Shown here one piece after another: positions 6,345 through 40,894 of a stretch of 58,270 bases of DNA. The notes below the pieces were generated by a model. That model was not told the DNA's origin. It saw only the letters and a program-made list of their open reading frames with translations, and ran no database searches. How positions within the stretch are numbered: the stretch's first letter is position 1; each line of letters opens with the position of its first letter. The translations under genes and the position numbers were made by a program. This DNA is from an uncultured Candidatus Saccharibacteria bacterium (GTDB lineage Bacteria > Patescibacteriota > Minisyncoccia > UBA9983): NCBI GenBank assembly GCA_964438405.1, contig CAYTKF010000003.1, forward strand, positions 1-58,270. The letters are read 5' to 3'.

Positions 6345-7563
6345 TATGTTATATAAATATTCAGCGACAACGCCGGATGGGCAGAGAAGCAGCGGCACCA
6401 TTGAGGCGGCCAACATCGAACTGGCTGTTAATTCTTTACAAACCAAAAATCTGATTATCATGTCCATTGATCCGGCTGATAAGTCTCCTTTCTTGTCGTT
6501 AAAACTTTCAACGATTGTTTCTTTTTTTGAAAGAATAAAAAACAGGGATATTGTTATTTTTTCCAGGCAACTGGCCACATTTTTTGAGGCCAAGGTTTCA
6601 ACCATGGCTTCCTTTAAAATGCTTATTACTGAAACAGATAATCCGGTTCTGCGCAGGGTTGTTGCCTCTGTTTTGGACGATGTTCAGGGAGGTGTCTCTC
6701 TTTCTCAGGCCATGTCCAAACATCCGGATGCCTTTTCCCGTTTTTATGTAAGTATGGTTAAATCAGCAGAAGAATCAGGAAAGCTTGATGAAACATTTAC
6801 TTATCTGGCTGATTACATGGAGCGTTCATATGAATTGTCTTCAAAAGCCAAAAATGCCCTTATCTATCCGGCCTTTATTATATCAGCGCTCATTGTTGTT
6901 TTGATACTGATGATGGTTTATGTCATTCCCAACTTGAAGACAATTTTAACAGAATCCGGCCAGACACTTCCTTTTTACACACAAATTTTAATAGGGCTGA
7001 GCAATTTTTTTATAAATTTTGGCGTCTATCTTTTGATTCTTTTGGCAATAGGCGCGTATTTTTTATGGAGATATAAAAGGACGGAAAACGGTAAAGTTGC
7101 TGTTTCCAGATTTATTCTCTCCGTGCCGTTATTCGGGCCAATTTTCAAAAAATTTTATATTTCCCGCATTACGGATAATTTAGAGACATCTCTTTCAAGC
7201 GGCATATCAATGGTCAGGGCGCTTGAAATTGCCTCTGATGTTGCAGGAGATAGCGTTTACGGAAAAATATTAGTTGATTCTGTAAATGATGTGAAGGCCG
7301 GAGAATCGCTTTCTGTTTCTTTGGGCCGTTACAAGGAGGTTCCCTCTATTGTTTCTCAGATGATTAAAATAGGAGAAGAGACCGGCAAGCTAAATTTCAT
7401 TTTAAAAACTCTGAGCCGCTTTTACAGAAAAGAGGTTAATAACGCAGTGGATACTTTGGTGAGTTTAATAGAGCCGGTTATGATTATTGTTTTGGGAGGA
7501 TTTGTCGGCATTTTTATTTTGGCAATATTGGGACCGATTTATAGTTTGACTTCAGCCATGTAA
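6337..7563 (+). CDS. pilC: Type IV pilus inner-membrane platform protein PilC (GspF family)
   Basis: FSRQLAT, AEESGKLD, LIYPAF, MIKIGEETG, LIEPVMI. Confidence 0.95.
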   Translation: MDNMLYKYSATTPDGQRSSGTIEAANIELAVNSLQTKNLIIMSIDPADKSPFLSLKLSTIVSFFERIKNRDIVIFSRQLATFFEAKVSTMASFKMLITETDNPVLRRVVASVLDDVQGGVSLSQAMSKHPDAFSRFYVSMVKSAEESGKLDETFTYLADYMERSYELSSKAKNALIYPAFIISALIVVLILMMVYVIPNLKTILTESGQTLPFYTQILIGLSNFFINFGVYLLILLAIGAYFLWRYKRTENGKVAVSRFILSVPLFGPIFKKFYISRITDNLETSLSSGISMVRALEIASDVAGDSVYGKILVDSVNDVKAGESLSVSLGRYKEVPSIVSQMIKIGEETGKLNFILKTLSRFYRKEVNNAVDTLVSLIEPVMIIVLGGFVGIFILAILGPIYSLTSAM

Positions 7564-8196: not shown

Positions 8197-8234
8197 CCTG
8201 CCCGCAACGCTTGAGCGTAGCGATGGCGGGCGGG
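8197..8234 (+). repeat. REP-like GC-rich palindrome (CCTGCC family)
   Basis: CCTGCCCGC...GCGGGCGGG hairpin; near-identical inverted copy at 18233-18263. Confidence 0.8.
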
Positions 8235-8270
8235 GTCGATTTAAAAATTATTTCATTATTAAAATAAAAA

Positions 8271-8762
8271 ATGAATAAAAGAAACAAAGGTTTTACCTTA
8301 ATTGAACTTCTGGTAGTCATTGCCATTATCGGCTTATTGTCTTCTATTGTTTTGGCCTCGCTTAACAGCGCCAGAAAGAAAGCCAGAGACGCAAGAAGAG
8401 TGGCTGATTTAAAACAGCTTCAGATAGCATTAGAAATGTATTTTGACACTAATAAGCTTTATCCAACAGGCGCAAGCGCTACGGCCTTAGATCTGCTTAA
8501 AACCGGAGGATATATATCAGTAGTCCCTGTTGATCCTTTAGGCGGAACTTATGCATACGCAGGATTGGGTTCTGGCACTTCCTGCACTTCTTACCACCTC
8601 GGATCCAGTCTTGAAGACACTAACAGCCCGCTTCTTGGTAACGACGCTGATGCTGCATCTGGCACCGCCTGTACTGGCAGCACTGATTTTTCCGGCGTTG
8701 ATACAGCCAAATGCGCTGCCGCAGACTTGGGAGGCGCTGACTGCTATGACCTTAAGCCGTAA
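8271..8762 (+). CDS. Type IV major pilin 2 (paralog of pilin 1)
   Basis: RNKG|FTLIE signal; shares CxSYHLGxxLED and CYDxKP with pilin 1; 4 Cys. Confidence 0.92.
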
Positions 8763-8902: not shown

Positions 8903-9597
8903 ATATCTACATCGAAGTCGGACTTCGACGCAAGTGGCCAATCACGAAGAAATTCTTCATATTCTTTTTTATTTTTAAATTGGTCAGTAATTATCTCTGA
9001 TCCGGATATTATCTGGTCTTTAAAGTTTTCTTCTAAAAACATCTTTAAACTTGACCAAGGATAGTTTAAAAGTTTATTTTTCGAAGAATTCCATTCTTTT
9101 AAGTTGTGCTGTCTCCAACCCTTACCGATTAAGAAATCCAAAGGATTAAGATGAATGTAAACAGAAAGATGAAGCAGATATTCATTTGAATTTACATGTT
9201 TAGATTTAAATTTGCTTTCAAAAAGGGGGCCGGTTCTGCCATTTTTTATATTTATGTATTTAGCAATTGATGTATTGCATTTACGTATAAATTCAGTAAT
9301 TCCTTTTTCTTTAACCTCTTTTAATAAAAGATGATAATGGTCTGGCATTATTGCATAACAGAGAACATCCACCAATTTTTCTCCTCGCCTTGCAATTTCT
9401 GTAGCTCTTTTAAATGTTGAATTTCTGTCGTTTCTTAAATAATCAAATGCTTGACCCGATTTTGTTGAATTGGCCAATAAAAATGTTTGGGCAAGTTTTG
9501 ATGCATTCTTGGTATCTTTAAACTCGGGAATATTAAAAATTGTTCTGCTGTATATATGATAGTATTCACCAGGAACAAATTTTTCTTTTCTCACCAT
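8899..9597 (-). mobile_element. REP-associated tyrosine transposase (RAYT, IS200/Y1 HUH superfamily)
   Basis: GEYYHIYSR, CYAIMPDHYHLLL (HUH), GPLFESKFKS, YIHLNP, YPWSS motifs. Confidence 0.9.
8908..8934. repeat. 27-bp hairpin direct repeat, copy 1 (overlaps the RAYT 3' end)
   Basis: TACATCGAAGTCGGACTTCGACGCAAG, containing the inverted repeat TCGAAGTC-G-GACTTCGA; identical to 9608-9634. Confidence 0.92.
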
Positions 9598-12349: not shown

Positions 12350-14780
<2,431 letters not shown>

Positions 14781-16078: not shown

Positions 16079-17491
16079 ATGGCTGTAATAAATTTGGGGG
16101 AATTAAATATAAAAAAGGCCAGGGAATTGATTGATAAAAAAGAAATTTCCTGCAGGGAACTGCTCGCGCTTTATCAAAAAAATATCAAAGACAAAAATGA
16201 AAATGTTAACGCATTTCTGGAAGTTTTTGATGATGCAGATGAATTTGCAGAAAGGACTGACAAGGAAATTTTATCAGGCAAAGAATTCAAAGAGCTTGCT
16301 GGTATTCCCATTGCCATTAAAGACAACATTTTAATAAAAGAAAAAATTTGCTCGGCTGGCTCAAAAATTTTGGAAAATTATCACGCAACATACGATGCAA
16401 CTGTCATAAAAAAACTTCGCGATGCAGGAGCAATTTTTATAGGCAGAACAAACATGGACGAATTTGCAATGGGTTGTTCCACTGAGAATTCTAGCTACGG
16501 CCCCACAAAAAATCCCTATGATTTGGAGCGAGTTCCTGGCGGTTCCTCTGGCGGTTCAGCAACGGCAGTTGCAATACAGGGCGCAATTGCTTCTCTTGGT
16601 TCTGATACGGGCGGTTCCATACGCCAGCCAGCAAGTTTCTGCGGAGTTGTGGGATTGAAACCGACTTACGGAACTGTTTCGCGCTATGGTCTCATTGCCA
16701 TGGCTTCGTCTTTTGACCAGATAGGGCCGATTACAAAAAGTGTTGAGGACGCGGAAATAATTTTTAATATTATACGCGGAAAAGATAAAATGGATTCAAC
16801 ATCTGTAGAAAGTCGTCAGTCATCAGTCGTCAGTCGTCAGCTTAAAATCGGTCTTTTAAAATACGATAGAAATGGCGTTGATAAAGAAATTAACGACGCC
16901 ATTGATTCTTCGGTAAAGATCTTAAGAAGACTGGGCTACGAAGTTGCAGAAATTGACATGCCCAATCTTGAGTACGCCCTTGCATGTTATTATATTCTTG
17001 TTCCCGCAGAAATTTCCGCAAACCTGGCTCGTTTTGACGGCGTCCGATACGGGCTTTCTATTAAGGGGGAAAATTTAATGGAAGATTATTTAAAGACAAG
17101 GGCTGAAGGTTTTGGCAAAGAGGTCAAAAGAAGAATAATGCTTGGCACCTATGTTCTTTCTGCCGGATATTACGATCAATATTACGCCAAGGCTCAGAAA
17201 GTCAGGGTTTTAATAAAAAAAGATTTTGAGCGTGCATTTAAAAATTTTGATTTAATCTTGTCGCCGGTTTCTCCGACTCTGCCGTTTAAAATAGGGGAGA
17301 AAGTTGATGACCCACTTAAAATGTATCTGTCAGATATTTTTACCGTTTCCGTAAACCTGGCAGGTTTGCCGGCAATATCAATTCCTTTCTCAAAAAATAT
17401 CGGCGTTCAATTCATTGCGCCGTGGTTTAGAGAAGATGTATTATTTAACATAGGCAAGCAATATGAACAATATAGCGGCGCAAGCGCCTGA
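16079..17491 (+). CDS. gatA: Asp/Glu-tRNA amidotransferase subunit A
   Basis: IAIKDN, RTNMDEFAMG, PGGSSGGSA, GSDTGGSIRQPA amidase signature, RRIMLGTY. Confidence 0.96.
   Translation: MAVINLGELNIKKARELIDKKEISCRELLALYQKNIKDKNENVNAFLEVFDDADEFAERTDKEILSGKEFKELAGIPIAIKDNILIKEKICSAGSKILENYHATYDATVIKKLRDAGAIFIGRTNMDEFAMGCSTENSSYGPTKNPYDLERVPGGSSGGSATAVAIQGAIASLGSDTGGSIRQPASFCGVVGLKPTYGTVSRYGLIAMASSFDQIGPITKSVEDAEIIFNIIRGKDKMDSTSVESRQSSVVSRQLKIGLLKYDRNGVDKEINDAIDSSVKILRRLGYEVAEIDMPNLEYALACYYILVPAEISANLARFDGVRYGLSIKGENLMEDYLKTRAEGFGKEVKRRIMLGTYVLSAGYYDQYYAKAQKVRVLIKKDFERAFKNFDLILSPVSPTLPFKIGEKVDDPLKMYLSDIFTVSVNLAGLPAISIPFSKNIGVQFIAPWFREDVLFNIGKQYEQYSGASA
16811..16840. repeat. Heptamer tandem repeat (AGTCGTC)x4.3 inside gatA
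   Basis: AGTCGTC AGTCATC AGTCGTC AGTCGTC AG, encoding SRQSSVVSRQ. Confidence 0.85.
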
Positions 17492-18047
17492 ACCAAGATT
17501 TCTTAATCTTGAATATATTTTCGCGCATTTTTTTGTGTTGCTATATTATTTAGCATTACAGATTCTTAAATTTGCAGAATGGCTTTCGCATCAAGCGTTG
17601 CTTTCCGTTGTTTTGTCAATAATATTTTTGATCTGCATAATTTTTGTCGTCATTAACATAATGCGCTTGAGGTCGCGAAAGATGACTCATCTTGCCAATT
17701 TTGTCATGCACGAAGATGTTCCCAAAATGCGCGTAAACAAATGGGATGATATTAATAAAAAAATCTCCAGCGAAAATCAGGCTGACTGGAAATCAGCAAT
17801 CATTGAGGTTGACGCGTTGATAGACAGCATAATCCAGAGAATCGGTTACAAAGAAGGGGAGAGCATGACAGAGAGATTGAGAAGTATTGAGCCGAGCGAT
17901 CTGGACAGTTTAAAAGATGTCTGGGAGGCGCACAGAATAAAAATCAAAATAAGTCACGAGGGCGAGGCATTTCAGCTCACGCAAGAAATTGCCAAAGAGA
18001 CAATGGGAAAATACAAAAAAGCACTCAAAGAATTGAAGTATATATAA
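17463..18047 (+). CDS. Membrane-anchored hypothetical protein with a helical HEPN-like C-terminal domain
   Basis: N-terminal TM segments; WKSAIIEVDALID...GESMTERL...WEAHRIKIKISHE. Confidence 0.6.
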   Translation: MNNIAAQAPEPRFLNLEYIFAHFFVLLYYLALQILKFAEWLSHQALLSVVLSIIFLICIIFVVINIMRLRSRKMTHLANFVMHEDVPKMRVNKWDDINKKISSENQADWKSAIIEVDALIDSIIQRIGYKEGESMTERLRSIEPSDLDSLKDVWEAHRIKIKISHEGEAFQLTQEIAKETMGKYKKALKELKYI

Positions 18048-18053
18048 TTTCTG

Positions 18054-18128
18054 CGCAGCCGATGGGATTTGAACCCACGATCTTCCCCGTGACAGGGGGA
18101 CGTGTTAACCGGGCTACACTACGGCTGC
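18054..18128 (-). tRNA. tRNA-Asp(GTC)
   Basis: Acceptor GCAGCCG/CGGCTGC, anticodon arm TCCCC-CTGTCAC-GGGGA, TTCAAAT T-loop. Confidence 0.95.
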
Positions 18129-18131
18129 ATA

Positions 18132-18205
18132 TGTCGGAGGTGGGAGTCGAACCCACGACCTTAGGTTTATGAATCCTACGCTCTAACCATCTGAGCTACT
18201 CCGAC
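18132..18205 (-). tRNA. tRNA with CAT anticodon (elongator Met or Ile2)
   Basis: Acceptor GTCGGAG/CTCCGAC, loop TTCATAA, TTCGACT T-loop. Met versus Ile2 cannot be decided by eye. Confidence 0.88.
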
Positions 18206-18210
18206 AAATT

Positions 18211-18284
18211 TTAAAAGTCCTTTGTTCCCCGTCCGCCATCGCTACGCGAAGCGTTGCGGGCAGATGCCGTTGAACTATACTGGC
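18211..18284 (-). pseudogene. 5'-half tRNA-Lys(TTT) pseudogene with a REP in the D-loop
   Basis: Minus strand: GCCAGTA TA GTTC AACGG [CA-REP-CGGG] GAAC A AAGGA CTTTTAA, then truncated. D-stem GTTC/GAAC and the Lys anticodon loop are intact. Confidence 0.75.
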
Positions 18285-18291
18285 GAACTTG

Positions 18292-18362
18292 TTGCGGGGG
18301 CGGGAATTGCACCCGCGCCTGGGGATTATGAGCCCCCCGACCTACTACTGGTCTACCCCGCT
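18292..18362 (-). tRNA. Initiator tRNA-fMet(CAT)
   Basis: Unpaired 1:72 (A/A), GCGGGG/CCCCGC acceptor, A11:U24, G-run anticodon stem with loop CTCATAA; T-loop TGCAATT. Confidence 0.85.
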
Positions 18363-18429
18363 AAAAAACAAATTAATTATATCAGTCTTGAAAAATAAAG
18401 CAAATAAGATAAAATAAGATAGAGAAATC

Positions 18430-18505
18430 GCCAACGTAGCTCAGGTAGCAGAGCACATTCTTGGTAAGAATGAGGTCCGCAGTGCAAATCTGCGCGTTGG
18501 CTCCA
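18430..18505 (+). tRNA. tRNA-Thr(GGT)
   Basis: Acceptor GCCAACG/CGTTGGC, CATTC-TTGGTAA-GAATG, encoded CCA; T-loop TGCAAAT. Confidence 0.93.
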
Positions 18506-18576
18506 GGGGTTGACTTTTTGGTTGACTTATGTTAATCTTATAAAAAAGGCCAATTTAGGGCTTTTTTGTTTAATTT

Positions 18577-18984
18577 ATGAAGACAAAATATTCGATTAAG
18601 ATTTTGGCCATTAATGTTTTGTTGTCATTAATGACATTGCCTATAATTACTTTTGCCAATGCAAAAGTCGTTCAGGCGCCGGATTTGGAGACAAAAGAAA
18701 TGGTTGTTCATGTCACTGGTTATTCTTCAACTATTGACCAGACCGATGACACGCCGTTTATTGCGGCCAATGGAACGCGTGTTCATGACGGAGTGGTTGC
18801 CGCAAACTTTTTGCCCTTTGGCACAAAAATAAAAATTCCCGAGGTTTATGGCGATAAAGTCTTTACGGTTGAAGACAGAATGAACAAAAGATATAAAGAT
18901 AGAGTTGATATTTGGTTTCCAAATAAAAAGAGTGCCACTTATTTTGGCCATCAGGTTTTAAAAATACAGATTTTAGAAATATAA
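18577..18984 (+). CDS. 3D (Asp-Asp-Asp) domain protein, putative peptidoglycan-active
   Basis: Signal peptide; VTGYSST..QTDDTP..ANG, VAANFLPFGTKI, VEDRM, VDIW. Confidence 0.88.
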   Translation: MKTKYSIKILAINVLLSLMTLPIITFANAKVVQAPDLETKEMVVHVTGYSSTIDQTDDTPFIAANGTRVHDGVVAANFLPFGTKIKIPEVYGDKVFTVEDRMNKRYKDRVDIWFPNKKSATYFGHQVLKIQILEI

Positions 18985-18999
18985 AAGAAAGGGTTCGAA

Positions 19000-19033
19000 A
19001 ACAAAAATCTTGCCCAAAGGCAAGATTTTTGTT
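19000..19033. terminator. Bidirectional intrinsic terminator
   Basis: AACAAAAATCTTGCC-CAAA-GGCAAGATTTTTGTT, a perfect 15-bp stem. Confidence 0.8.
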
Positions 19034-19048
19034 ATTTTATAGATAATT

Positions 19049-19122
19049 GCCGATGTAGCTCAGATGGCCAGAGCAACGCTTTCGTAAAGCGTGGGTCGTC
19101 GGTTCGACTCCGACCATCGGCT
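19049..19122 (+). tRNA. tRNA-Thr(CGT)
   Basis: Acceptor GCCGATG/CATCGGC, ACGCT-TTCGTAA-AGCGT, TTCGACT T-loop. Confidence 0.95.
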
Positions 19123-19125
19123 TTA

Positions 19126-19182
19126 TCCCAATTCCCTGCCCGCCATGCGAGCCGCAAGGCGAGGCAGGCGGGGAATCTGGGA
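19126..19182 (+). repeat. REP-like hairpin (CCTGCC family) extending over the prfB SD
   Basis: TCCCA ATTCCC TGCCCGCC...GGCAGGCGGG GAAT C TGGGA nested stem. Confidence 0.7.
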
Positions 19183-19190
19183 GGTGGCTT

Positions 19191-20060
19191 ATGGACGATA
19201 TAAAAAATAAAATTGCGGAATTGGAGGTAGAAATGCTGAAGCCGGATTTTTGGAAAGACAAAGAACGGGCGCAGAAAGTTATTAGGGAAATTAAAGAATT
19301 GAAAGAAGGGGCTCTTGGCGCGGGAAAATATGACAAAGGCGACGCAGTTTTAACGCTTTTTTCCGGAGCCGGAGGCGATGATGCCGAAGATTGGACGCGT
19401 ATGCTTTTTGAAATGTATGAAAAATACTCAACTAGACGCGGCTGGCCTGTAAAAATTCTCCACGGCCACAAAAGCGAATCAGATGGATATAAAAATATTA
19501 CTTTTGAAGTGCGGGGCAAAAATGTTTATGGCGCGCTTAAAAACGAATCAGGCGTTCATCGCCTGGTGCGTATCTCTCCGTTTTCTGCAAAAAAACTTAG
19601 ACATACCTCTTTTGCGCTTTTGGAAGTTGTGCCGAAATTTGTCGCGCCGGAAGAGGTTGAAATTTCCGATAAAGATATTAAAATAGAATTAAGCAGGTCA
19701 TCGGGCCCAGGCGGGCAGAATGTAAATAAAAGAGAGACTGCTGTGCGCATTGTGCATCTAGCGACAAATATCGCTGTTCATATAGATTCAGAACGTTCCC
19801 AGCAGCAAAATAAAGAAAGGGCCATGGAATTGTTAAAGTCAAAACTTTACAGACAAAAAGTTTTACAGGAAGAAGAAGAAAAAAATTTCATGCGCATCAG
19901 CAAGACCACAGAGGCAGAATGGGGAAGCCAAATACGTTCTTATGTTTTGCATCCTTACAAGATGGTCAAAGACCACAGGACAGAAGTTGAAACAGCGGAC
20001 GTGGAGGCCGTGCTCAACGGAGATTTGGATAAATTTATAGAAGCGGAAAAAACATTATAA
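19191..20060 (+). CDS. prfB: Peptide chain release factor 2 (short form, no frameshift)
   Basis: SPF anticodon mimic (RISPF), GGQ (SGPGGQNVNK), WGSQIRSYVLHPY. Confidence 0.93.
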   Translation: MDDIKNKIAELEVEMLKPDFWKDKERAQKVIREIKELKEGALGAGKYDKGDAVLTLFSGAGGDDAEDWTRMLFEMYEKYSTRRGWPVKILHGHKSESDGYKNITFEVRGKNVYGALKNESGVHRLVRISPFSAKKLRHTSFALLEVVPKFVAPEEVEISDKDIKIELSRSSGPGGQNVNKRETAVRIVHLATNIAVHIDSERSQQQNKERAMELLKSKLYRQKVLQEEEEKNFMRISKTTEAEWGSQIRSYVLHPYKMVKDHRTEVETADVEAVLNGDLDKFIEAEKTL

Positions 20061-39902: not shown

Positions 39903-40517
39903 ATGACTGCTTTACAAAAAATTAAAAAACTGGAAAAAGAGATTAAAAAACTGCGCGAGCTGGCATATAAAGACGAGCTGACCAAGCTTTACAATAGGCA
40001 TGGCTTTAAAGAAGAGTCAGAAAAGATTATTTCTCAGGTGTCGGCCTTTTTAAAACACGGCGATAAAAGAAAATCTTTGATAATAAAAGATTTTAGTTTG
40101 ATAATTTTTGACATAGACAATTTTAAAAAACTTAACGATACTTACGGCCATCAGGCGGGCGACGAGGCCTTAAAATTTTTTAGCGGATTAATATTGGACC
40201 GTGTAAGAGGCATTGATGCTGTGGCCCGTTGGGGCGGGGAAGAAATTGTAGTGGGTCTGGCCGGAGCCAACGAAGATGACGCATATAAAATCGCCGATGA
40301 TATCCGCGGAAAGCTGGAAAGAAACAGTTTTGTTTATAAAAATAAAAAAATAAATTTTACAGTTAGCGGTGGCGTGACAAGTTTAAATAAGACAAAAGAT
40401 TTTGAGAATATGTTTCGTTGCGCTGACAAAGCCTTGTATAAAGCCAAAAAAACAGGTAAAAATAAGATAGTAAAAGGAAGCGTCGCATTGCGCCTCAACG
40501 GCGCACTTGTGCGGTAA
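39903..40517 (+). CDS. GGDEF diguanylate cyclase
   Basis: DELTKLYNR, FDIDNFKKLNDTYGH, RxxD I-site, RWGGEE, ADKALYKAK. Confidence 0.92.
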   Translation: MTALQKIKKLEKEIKKLRELAYKDELTKLYNRHGFKEESEKIISQVSAFLKHGDKRKSLIIKDFSLIIFDIDNFKKLNDTYGHQAGDEALKFFSGLILDRVRGIDAVARWGGEEIVVGLAGANEDDAYKIADDIRGKLERNSFVYKNKKINFTVSGGVTSLNKTKDFENMFRCADKALYKAKKTGKNKIVKGSVALRLNGALVR

Positions 40518-40818
40518 TGAGGTGCATCCGCCGATGAGGCGGAAGTAATAATATAATTAATGTTTTACTTTTATGTGTTAAAATTTAAAAAGAATGGTAA
40601 ATTATATTATGGTTTTACAAATAATTTGAAACGTAGAATTAGAGACCATAATAGTGGTCAGTCTGATTTTTCTTCAAGAAACGGTAAATTTGATTTGATA
40701 TTTTATGAAGCTTATATCAATAAAAATGATGCAATGGCCGCAGAAAAATATTTTAAAAGTGGACACGGGAGAGAAGTATTAAGAGGAAAATTGAAAAATT
40801 ATTTTGGAAGCGTCGCAT
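40476..40818 (+). mobile_element. GIY-YIG insertion unit that duplicated the 5' end of tRNA-Ser
   Basis: GGAAGCGTCGCAT at 40476-88 and 40806-18 (330 bp apart); REP hairpins at 40489-505 and 40526-44; nuclease gene in between. Confidence 0.75.
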
Positions 40819-40820
40819 AG
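40560..40820 (+). CDS. GIY-YIG nuclease family protein
   Basis: FYFYVL...LYYGFT..LKRRIRDHN...YEAY...AEKYFK; stop codon lies in the tRNA D-arm. Confidence 0.9.
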   Translation: MFYFYVLKFKKNGKLYYGFTNNLKRRIRDHNSGQSDFSSRNGKFDLIFYEAYINKNDAMAAEKYFKSGHGREVLRGKLKNYFGSVA

Positions 40821-40890
40821 TGGCCTAGTGCGCCCGCTTGGAAAGCGGGTATGCCGAAAGGCATCGTGAGTTCGAATCTCACCGCTTCCG
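40806..40890 (+). tRNA. tRNA-Ser(GGA)
   Basis: Acceptor GGAAGCG/CGCTTCC, CCCGC-TTGGAAA-GCGGG, long variable arm, TTCGAAT T-loop. Confidence 0.95.
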
Positions 40891-40894
40891 ATTG

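Follow-up and report, generated by a model that had tools for sequence, protein, structure and literature searches.

Positions 1 to 58,270 of contig CAYTKF010000003.1 (assembly GCA_964438405.1), from an uncultured Candidatus Saccharibacteria bacterium, carry on their minus strand a cluster in which an initiator tRNA-fMet(CAT), a second tRNA(CAT) and tRNA-Asp(GTC) follow one another. This study concerns the spacer between the first two, where the 5′ half of a further tRNA gene, split by a short palindromic element, lies hidden. Throughout the text we call the whole 58,270-nucleotide (nt) stretch the window, the hidden half-gene the relic, the intact tRNA(CAT) that follows it type ‘W’, and the position beside tRNA-Asp that ‘W’ occupies the slot. 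Retrieved loci are numbered with the prefix L; those used most often, L005 and L012, represent two lineages that are related to the window and hold their own tRNA(CAT) genes in the slot. The features of the locus, in the order in which they are met along the minus strand, are as follows.

18291–18362, minus strand: intact, initiator-type tRNA-fMet(CAT) (ARAGORN; Rfam RF00005, 56.5 bits; sequence).
18290–18207, minus strand: 84-nt spacer between tRNA-fMet and the next tRNA(CAT).
18265–18284, minus strand: relic, tRNA positions 1–21, comprising the acceptor 5′ strand (GCCAGTA), U8 A9 (TA), the D-stem 5′ strand (GTTC) and the D-loop (AACGGCA); 19 of 20 nt match the L005 tRNA(CAT).
18228–18264, minus strand: 37-nt copy of the palindromic element, TCTGCCCGCAACGCTTCGCGTAGCGATGGCGGACGGG, that is, TCTGC-CCGCAACGCTTCGCGTAGCGATGGCGG-ACGGG, delimited by comparison with the intact L005 gene and by family membership.
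18216–18227, minus strand: relic, tRNA positions 22–33, comprising the D-stem 3′ strand (GAAC), position 26 (A), the anticodon-stem 5′ strand (AAGGA) and C32 U33 (CT); 11 of 12 nt match the L005 tRNA(CAT).
18206–18215, minus strand: AT-rich junction TTTAAAATTT, at which similarity to the old gene stops; L005 has CATAAGCCCT at these positions.
18132–18205, minus strand: intact tRNA(CAT) of type ‘W’, with a 9-nt D-loop and the acceptor stem GUCGGAG/CUCCGAC (ARAGORN; Rfam, 70.5 bits).
18053–18128, minus strand: tRNA-Asp(GTC), the right-hand neighbour of the slot, conserved in the window, L005 and L012 (ARAGORN; Rfam).

The relic and the gene from which it came

The tRNA-fMet gene, recognizable by its 1:72 mismatch and its GGGG/CCCC anticodon stem, is the first gene of the cluster and is preceded by a perfect TATAAT. 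The spacer behind it opens with AAGTTC, the relic begins at 18284, and the palindromic element is inserted between A21 of the D-loop and G22, a point that is fixed by the comparison with the intact L005 tRNA(CAT) gene, relative to which there is no target-site duplication. By the boundaries of its family the element ends at 18227, where the G doubles as tRNA G22. The initial annotation of this locus had described a hidden minus-strand tRNA half-gene without a 3′ half, lying between two CAT tRNAs, and each sequence feature that it listed is present, as are the tRNA-fMet(CAT) and tRNA(CAT) ‘W’ on either side; the palindrome does sit in the D-loop, although it measures 37 nt and not the 33 nt first given. 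After C32 U33 the relic has no anticodon 3′ strand, T arm or acceptor 3′ strand, and TTTAAAATTT leads straight into the next tRNA, with AATTT at 18210–18206 (minus strand) running into the tRNA start at 18205. This junction is more likely to be the leader of that next tRNA, or the remainder of an inserted cassette, than an anticodon TTT with its loop.

No tRNA is called in 18207–18290 by ARAGORN or, at a threshold as loose as E ≤ 10, by the Rfam tRNA model; in-silico deletion of the palindrome, proposed as a check on the half-gene, produces no new ARAGORN call in the window; and a scan of 17000–19500 at E ≤ 10 places no Rfam family on the spacer or the palindrome. The whole spacer folds at −25.7 kcal/mol (z = −2.1). 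Split tRNA genes of the Nanoarchaeum type have a separate gene for the 3′ half, with a complementary leader, and the two halves are joined in trans, whereas a search of the 58-kb window for the acceptor 3′ strand TACTGGC beside a T arm yielded no partner 3′ half for the relic. The locus is identical in four independent assemblies (L001–L004) and is therefore no assembly artefact. On the other side of tRNA-fMet, ARAGORN calls a tRNA-Thr(GGT) at 18430–18505 with an odd T-loop, GTGCAAATC, that is absent from the Rfam list at E ≤ 10.

Relatives of the locus were sought through the flanking 194-aa protein, which gave only five homologues and two informative lineages (the P0004 contig stopped short of the tRNAs), and through a 135-aa 3D-domain protein, none of whose 2,428 matches was close enough, their names doing no more than placing the window among Parcubacteria-like members of the candidate phyla radiation (CPR). 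In contigs L005–L011, in which the flanking protein is 67% identical, the order is GatA, the homologue of the 194-aa protein, tRNA-Asp, tRNA(CAT), tRNA-fMet and tRNA-Thr, and the slot tRNA(CAT) of L005 (10752–10680, minus strand; 5′ start GCCAGCATAGTTCAACGGCAGAACAAGGGACTCATAAGCC) stands intact beside tRNA-Asp in what is a Parcubacteria-like genome. With the palindrome taken out, the relic shares 30 of its 32 bases as far as U33 with this gene (blastn E = 2.8e-8), and 33 of 37 if the comparison is carried on to position 38. Scored against 96 distinct tRNAs from all fetched loci, it reaches 28 with the L005 tRNA(CAT), 18 with the next best and 4.9 ± 4.2 on average (z about 5.5 for the best match), and the Lys tRNAs in this comparison score 11 or less. 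A MAFFT alignment of the three loci paired ‘W’ with the relatives’ intact genes and so obscured the relic, and pairwise scores were used instead. Because the L005 gene is the best match, the Lys tRNAs score so low and the relatives have a CAT tRNA in the slot, the sequence identifies the relic as the first 33 nt of an elongator-type tRNA(CAT) gene. The initial annotation had taken it for tRNA-Lys, a view that the relatives contradict, as L005–L011 and L012 both carry tRNA(CAT) and never tRNA-Lys at this position; the TTT that had been read as the anticodon sits at the break point, where L005 has CAT and the similarity ends. A different intact tRNA(CAT) follows the relic, which therefore has no tRNA function; in a co-transcribed cluster it would be spacer RNA that processing removes.

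What now fills the slot is of another kind. ‘W’ differs from the relic in both halves and is no close match to it by blastn, which also finds no close relative of ‘W’ among all fetched loci. Its spacing to tRNA-Asp is nevertheless the same 3 nt as that of the L005 gene (A-TAT-G for ‘W’, A-AAT-G for L005). In L012, whose flanking protein is 84% identical, the slot holds a tRNA(CAT) of a third sequence type behind a 24-nt spacer, and in L005 the spacer is 105 nt long, AT-rich and equipped with a promoter-like site of its own. The slot is thus filled by a different tRNA(CAT) gene in each of three related lineages, one of which retains the stump of an earlier occupant; for this reason we read the sequences as recording replacement in the slot rather than the decay of one member of a tandem pair.

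The palindromic element and where it is found

The window contains a second copy of the element.

8197–8235, plus strand: palindromic element, CCTGC-CCGCAACGCTTGAGCGTAGCGATGGCGG-GCGGGG, between a promoter-like TATAAT and the start of a pilin gene at 8272.

Its hairpin folds at −24.7 kcal/mol (z = −2.7), and it agrees with the focal copy at 35 of 39 aligned positions, where shuffled sequence gives an expectation of 0 matches, so that the near-identity of the two palindromes reported earlier is borne out. We searched for further copies with the core pattern CCGCAACGC-N(3-9)-GCGTAGCGATGGCGG, which is matched in 45 loci of species-representative genomes and in 112 metagenome stretches, giving 129 distinct copies after the removal of duplicates. 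Conservation begins and ends abruptly, 5 nt to the left of the core (CCCGC) and 5–6 nt to its right (GCRNGG), and it is from these limits that we take the unit to be 38–39 bp long, CCCGC-CCGCAACGCCTGAGCGTAGCGATGGCGG-GCRNGG. A sequence logo over the copies has no conserved bases outside the element, and neither of the two insertion sites that can be reconstructed, those of the window and of L052, has a target-site duplication; with no target motif and no duplication, insertion appears to depend on structure. Diverged variants retain the hairpin by paired changes (e.g., AACGC..GCGTA to AATGC..GCATA), and among the copies such variants are found but none with its arms separated around an open reading frame (ORF).

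The initial annotation had proposed that the palindrome targets the tRNA D-loop region, and in the wider set of copies a preference for tRNA loops does appear. Fifteen of the 129 copies have a called tRNA within 100 nt, against an expectation of about 3.5% even in these biased loci (P = 5e-5), and at least 10 of the 129 lie inside the D- or T-loop of tRNA-derived sequence, tRNA genes making up ~0.8% of the fetched DNA (P ~ 1.6e-7). The D-loop or D-arm is occupied in the window, L098, L118, L046, L017, L074, L103 and L039, most commonly directly after G19, and the T-loop, at positions 55–57, in L052 and L096. Ten of 11 tRNA-embedded copies are in the tRNA-sense orientation (P = 0.006). Loop targeting by the element is supported by these counts.

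The accompanying proposal, that the palindrome can inactivate tRNA genes, finds no support in these copies. Each tRNA-embedded copy is housed in a truncated duplicate that has an intact gene as its neighbour: the 18-nt 5′ piece of tRNA-Phe in L046 is identical to the intact gene 93 nt away, and the 39-nt 3′ piece of tRNA-Lys in L052 lies 49 nt behind the intact gene. The window’s layout recurs in L098, with tRNA-fMet, a tRNA-Met 5′ half that carries the element after G19 and breaks in the anticodon loop, and an intact tRNA-Met; the focal relic and the remnants in L098 and L118 share their break position in the anticodon loop. When the element was removed in silico from all 129 copies, with 16 boundary variants each, ARAGORN recovered no complete tRNA that the element had interrupted, the only calls being L051 and tRNA-Gly genes that merely abut the element. 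Knock-outs of working tRNA genes may be lethal, which would explain why none is seen.

Three side observations concern the same neighbourhoods. A subfamily with a longer loop (CTTAGAGCG; L089, L090, L153, L123, L143) abuts the 5′ end of tRNA-Gly(TCC) or lies 43–145 nt upstream of it; the GCGGG end of the element doubles as the start of the acceptor stem, and an upstream ORF enters the element and stops inside it. Partial 3′ duplicates of tRNAs, starting from the anticodon loop or the T-loop, occur 50–130 nt past the intact gene and have a small hairpin at their junction (L125, about 9490–9560, and, downstream of tRNA-Gly, L123 and L153). Taken over the whole set, duplicates break in the three tRNA loops.

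The element is also common in protein genes. Open frames of at least 200 aa contain 54 of the 129 copies (about 40%), 41 in sense and 13 in antisense orientation (P = 9e-5), and 31 of the 41 sense copies share the frame giving PPATPERSDGGRG. Coding copies measure 39 nt, whereas the seven copies with a core one base shorter all lie outside open frames of at least 200 aa. Among the hosts checked, copies fall within the Pfam domains of FtsK, TopA (topoisomerase I zinc ribbon), GyrB, Fmt, TatD and BipA. Judged by length and frame, the in-frame copies appear to be read through as a 13-residue loop. The label ‘REP’ (repetitive extragenic palindrome) given to the element at first is right in that it is a short palindrome in multiple copies, but it undersells a sequence that is conserved across CPR phyla and stands in frame in housekeeping genes.

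The metagenome-assembled genomes (MAGs) that carry the element are labelled Kuenen-, Roizman-, Woese-, Gottesman-, Komeili-, Levy- and Saccharibacteria, Paceibacterota and unnamed Patescibacteria, together with several Gammaproteobacteria and one Margulisiibacteriota. Eight element contigs bear the label ‘uncultured Gammaproteobacteria’ at 38–44% GC (L017, L021, L030, L037, L044, L046, L047 and L057), and either the element has spread beyond the CPR or such labels are unreliable. In the high-GC matches L025, L038 and L048 the conserved flanks are partly or wholly absent, and these three probably match by chance. The pattern has 0 matches in IMG/VR viral contigs, blastn finds no match in GenBank phages, and in PLSDB plasmids blastn finds only partial 20–25-nt chance matches (E = 0.5). 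We found no description of the element in the literature searched. About 20 copies have short, locus-specific tandem repeats of ~7 nt on both sides, such as acctaca, aatctaa, aattact, aagctaa and ataccac (L020, L022, L043, L050, L058, L069, L082, L092, L109, L116, L127, L147, L149, L155, L157 and L161). At about 1940–1975 of L005, the site upstream of the pilin gene that is orthologous to 8197–8235 holds a different hairpin, CTGTCCGCGCTAATTTGTCGTAGGCGCGGCAGA, between conserved flanks, and hairpins seem to have been exchanged at this fixed site.

GIY-YIG cassettes and the comparison with known systems

A second locus in the window joins partial tRNA duplication to a candidate nuclease gene.

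40468–40891, plus strand: tRNA-Ser(GGA) cassette, with a 13-nt duplicate of the tRNA 5′ end (40468–40480), other palindromes, a GIY-YIG ORF of 86 aa (40560–40820) and the intact tRNA-Ser (40805–40891).

The ORF matches Pfam PF01541 (E = 7e-17) and overlaps the start of tRNA-Ser(GGA) at 40805, the 5′ sequence of which, GGAAGCGTCGCAT, is repeated at 40468. Position 40476 had been put forward as a second D-loop insertion in the window, which holds loosely: there is a tRNA-Ser 5′ duplicate with palindromes and a GIY-YIG gene, but no insertion of the focal palindrome. Among all ORFs of the fetched DNA, a profile search picks out 15 GIY-YIG ORFs; three were checked against Pfam and are PF01541. In ten of the 15 cases the ORF runs up to the 5′ end of a tRNA gene encoded on its own strand (window, L103, L071, L083, L143, L049/L133, L125, L036, L155); these ORFs are 80–110 aa long, lie 0–11 nt upstream, and each stands behind a duplicated 5′ piece of the tRNA, which spans positions 1–30 in L049, 1–36 in L143 and L155, 1–20 in L103, 1–14 in L083 and 1–13 in the window. 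The D-loop of the 5′ duplicate often holds a CCYGCC..GGCRGG hairpin (L049, L143, L103). These CPR ORFs are putative nucleases of tRNA-gene DNA, an activity demonstrated for phage SegB only (PMC13096335).

Several loci bring the cassettes close to the focal arrangement. In L103 a tRNA stump bearing the element is directly followed by a small GIY-YIG gene, and in L071 a GIY-YIG cassette lies between tRNA-fMet and tRNA-Met, a site of the same type as the focal one. Inverted repeats, CCCCGTTAGA../..TCTAACGGGG, enclose some GIY-YIG ORFs (L032, about 6470–6880; L028, about 1740–2020), and the junction TTCACCCCGTTARATTT[ATG] of L098 (about 450–470) and L118 (2369, 2537) matches the left inverted repeat of these elements, the ORF being gone. 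The focal locus shares the cassette layout of a partial 5′ tRNA stump, a short junction and an intact tRNA. L028 also contains ORF-less hairpin versions near 1073 and 2481, and L087 contains a tandem array (13183–13794) whose unit consists of a tRNA 5′ half, to the anticodon loop, two long hairpins and a GIY-YIG ORF.

We compared the element and the locus with known systems, and they fail at least one defining feature of each. Closest in habit are the Rickettsia palindromic elements (RPEs), reportedly described by Ogata et al. in 2000 (Science 290:347) and by Claverie & Ogata in 2003, and the PARCELs of Mollicutes, palindromic repeats that are said to be inserted in frame in protein genes. The CPR element is like them a short selfish palindrome that stands in frame in housekeeping proteins, where it seemingly forms a hydrophilic loop, as well as in non-coding DNA, and it too belongs to small, reduced genomes; it differs in being 38–39 bp long, against roughly 100–150 bp, and in being almost the same sequence in many CPR phyla (and in a few other MAGs) rather than confined to Rickettsia or Mollicutes. 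The preference for D- and T-loops is marked in the CPR element, and we know of no description of it for RPEs or PARCELs. REPs and REPINs are extragenic, species-specific sequences that are mobilized by RAYT (REP-associated tyrosine, or Y1) transposases in Proteobacteria. They resemble the CPR element as dispersed, imperfect palindromes of ~35–40 nt without target-site duplication, and the CPR element contains GTAG; in contrast to them, it lies inside ORFs (the 54 copies above) and tRNA pieces, and across phyla. Miniature inverted-repeat transposable elements differ from it in that it has no target-site duplication (window, L052) and no parent copy that we could find.

For the cassettes, integrase islands and prophages at tRNA genes offer one comparison: their attachment (att) sites duplicate the tRNA 3′ end, with crossover in the anticodon or T loop. 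A partial direct tRNA repeat beside an intact copy and break points in tRNA loops are common to both, whereas the CPR duplicates are usually 5′ pieces and the intervening DNA measures tens to a few hundred bases; the annotated neighbours of the focal locus include no integrase. The other comparison is with SegB, a free-standing GIY-YIG homing endonuclease whose gene lies in the tRNA cluster of phages T4/T6, and which cuts inside tRNA genes, the repair of the breaks duplicating tRNA segments (PMC13096335). Its cleavage motif is RAWTSGAAC (PMC13096335), the reverse complement of which we read as the canonical T-loop sequence. Likeness extends to the position of a GIY-YIG gene beside tRNA genes and to duplicated segments with tRNA sequence; the phage protein, however, is ~220 aa long with a DNA-binding part, whereas the CPR ORFs of 80–110 aa consist of the catalytic domain only, are chromosomal and lie against the tRNA 5′ end behind a 5′ duplicate. 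For the CPR, the only reports of GIY-YIG genes concern rRNA insertions (PMC11270868), and the literature searched contains no description of such genes at CPR tRNA genes.

Proposed displacement by break and repair, and its rivals

We consider it probable, at roughly 70%, that the spacer is a non-functional relic of the slot’s former tRNA(CAT) gene, split by the palindromic element and displaced by break and repair. Nuclease-induced breaks would fall in the loop-coding DNA of tRNA genes, and repair would rebuild or replace the tRNA gene downstream, stranding the old 5′ half. This process may be tied to the small GIY-YIG cassettes that sit directly before tRNA genes and follow a duplicated 5′ fragment, and the focal site, if it ever had a nuclease ORF, would have lost it. 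The palindrome, for its part, may enter the exposed loops of hairpin-forming DNA, or may mark, or be fixed at, the nuclease cut site, and it would persist in a stranded tRNA piece because it is costless to the cell there.

Several points weigh against this account. The focal spacer has no GIY-YIG ORF, the sole ORF of at least 50 aa that touches it being one of 58 aa (18222–18398, plus strand) that runs antisense over the relic and tRNA-fMet and whose domains were not searched; nor has it a recognizable cassette end. Its junction TTTAAAATTT resembles that of L098 only loosely. With neither an ORF nor a recognizable repeat in the spacer, the link to a nuclease at this site rests on analogy. Comparison is with just two related lineages, at 67% (L005) and 84% (L012, a 2.4-kb contig) identity in the flanking protein, and either the palindrome or the displacement may have come first. 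We found no transposase, target-site duplication or ORF-bearing parent copy for the element, no search having been aimed at Y1 transposases. The sense bias in ORFs could reflect selection on the encoded peptide rather than the mechanism of insertion. Finally, ‘W’ and the L005-type gene may both be elongator tRNA-Met, or one of the two may be the lysidine-bearing tRNA-Ile2, so that the rival explanation built on an ancestral tandem pair, of which one member later decayed, keeps some weight.

A larger scheme, in which the relic at 18216–18284 would be one footprint of a hitherto undescribed two-part mobile system of the CPR directed against tRNA genes, is possible but in our view doubtful. Small GIY-YIG nucleases at tRNA 5′ ends would regenerate the gene by partial duplication, and a 39-bp hairpin, almost invariant between phyla, would integrate by structure and not by sequence into the exposed D- and T-loops of tRNA-gene hairpins and into the loops of protein genes; the hairpin may be mobilized in trans by the nucleases, may shield the displaced piece from re-cutting or recombination, and the system as a whole would drive the turnover of tRNA(CAT) genes.

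The tandem-pair explanation, which we think unlikely, holds that two different tRNA(CAT) genes (e.g., elongator Met and Ile2-lysidine) stood side by side in the ancestor, that the palindrome killed one of them, that its function passed to a copy elsewhere and that the 3′ half was then deleted, all without a nuclease cassette. Bacteria require three CAT tRNAs, the relic diverges strongly in sequence from ‘W’, and a W-like tRNA(CAT) of 77 nt lies between fMet and Asp in a Saccharibacteria genome (L033), all of which fit a former pair. The relic-type gene of L005, however, stands 3 nt from tRNA-Asp, in the exact position of ‘W’, so that a pair would require a precise loss in L005, and a remnant with a matching intact gene next to it recurs in unrelated genomes for Met, Val, Phe and Lys (L098, L118, L046, L052). 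Remnants that match the adjacent intact gene argue for duplication or displacement and not for the decay of a paralogue.

It is quite improbable that the spacer is a functional RNA of the tRNA operon, whether processing hairpin, stabilizer or decoy, with an incidental or exapted likeness to tRNA. The spacer does lie inside a probable fMet-Met-Asp co-transcript, both window copies of the palindrome fold slightly better on the transcribed strand, and the copy at 8197–8235 is in a likely pilin 5′ untranslated region, where L005 has its different hairpin; the match to the L005 tRNA gene is nevertheless too specific for chance, the spacer is not conserved in L005 (105 nt) or L012 (24 nt), the fold z-score is only −2.1, and Rfam offers no match. 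Slightly less credible again, and by now largely refuted, is a tRNA-Lys(UUU) gene inactivated by a REP in its D-loop, with the 3′ half lost later. On the minus strand AAGGA-CTTTTAA does resemble an anticodon-stem strand and a 7-nt loop with TTT, and the palindrome is in the D-loop, but in addition to the CAT tRNAs of the relatives’ slot and the scores of 28 against 11 or less, the TTT comes at the end of the similarity, the L098 and L118 remnants break at that same loop position, and no copy of the element interrupts a complete tRNA. Least credible of all is a miniature intron, a hairpin cut by an endonuclease and resealed by RtcB/archease, which would account for tolerance in essential genes and tRNA sequence and would fit the sense bias in ORFs and tRNA pieces, the sharp boundaries, the cross-phylum conservation and the archease gene of L005, but which is opposed by the 39-nt length of the coding copies, their preference for one frame (31/41) and the exclusively non-coding location of the one-base-shorter copies, pointing to translation rather than removal, as well as by the absence among the copies of any intact tRNA gene with the element, such as a spliced intron predicts.

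The interpretation offered in the initial annotation is, as a whole, partly supported, and for annotation the consequence is that 18284–18216 should be treated as a pseudogene piece and not as a hidden tRNA-Lys. For the family, a compact palindromic element crosses the phyla of the CPR/Patescibacteria, is tolerated within essential enzymes such as FtsK, GyrB, TopA, Fmt and BipA, and repeatedly marks leftover tRNA halves. The presence of the element in tRNA remnants, together with GIY-YIG genes at tRNA 5′ ends, suggests that breaks, repair and replacement concentrate at the tRNA genes of these tiny genomes. If this is true, such hot spots would explain why close relatives have different tRNA(CAT) genes in the same slot, and they would form a chromosomal counterpart to the SegB-driven amplification of tRNA genes in phages; the element itself would then be a sequence marker of DNA exchange among uncultured CPR lineages.

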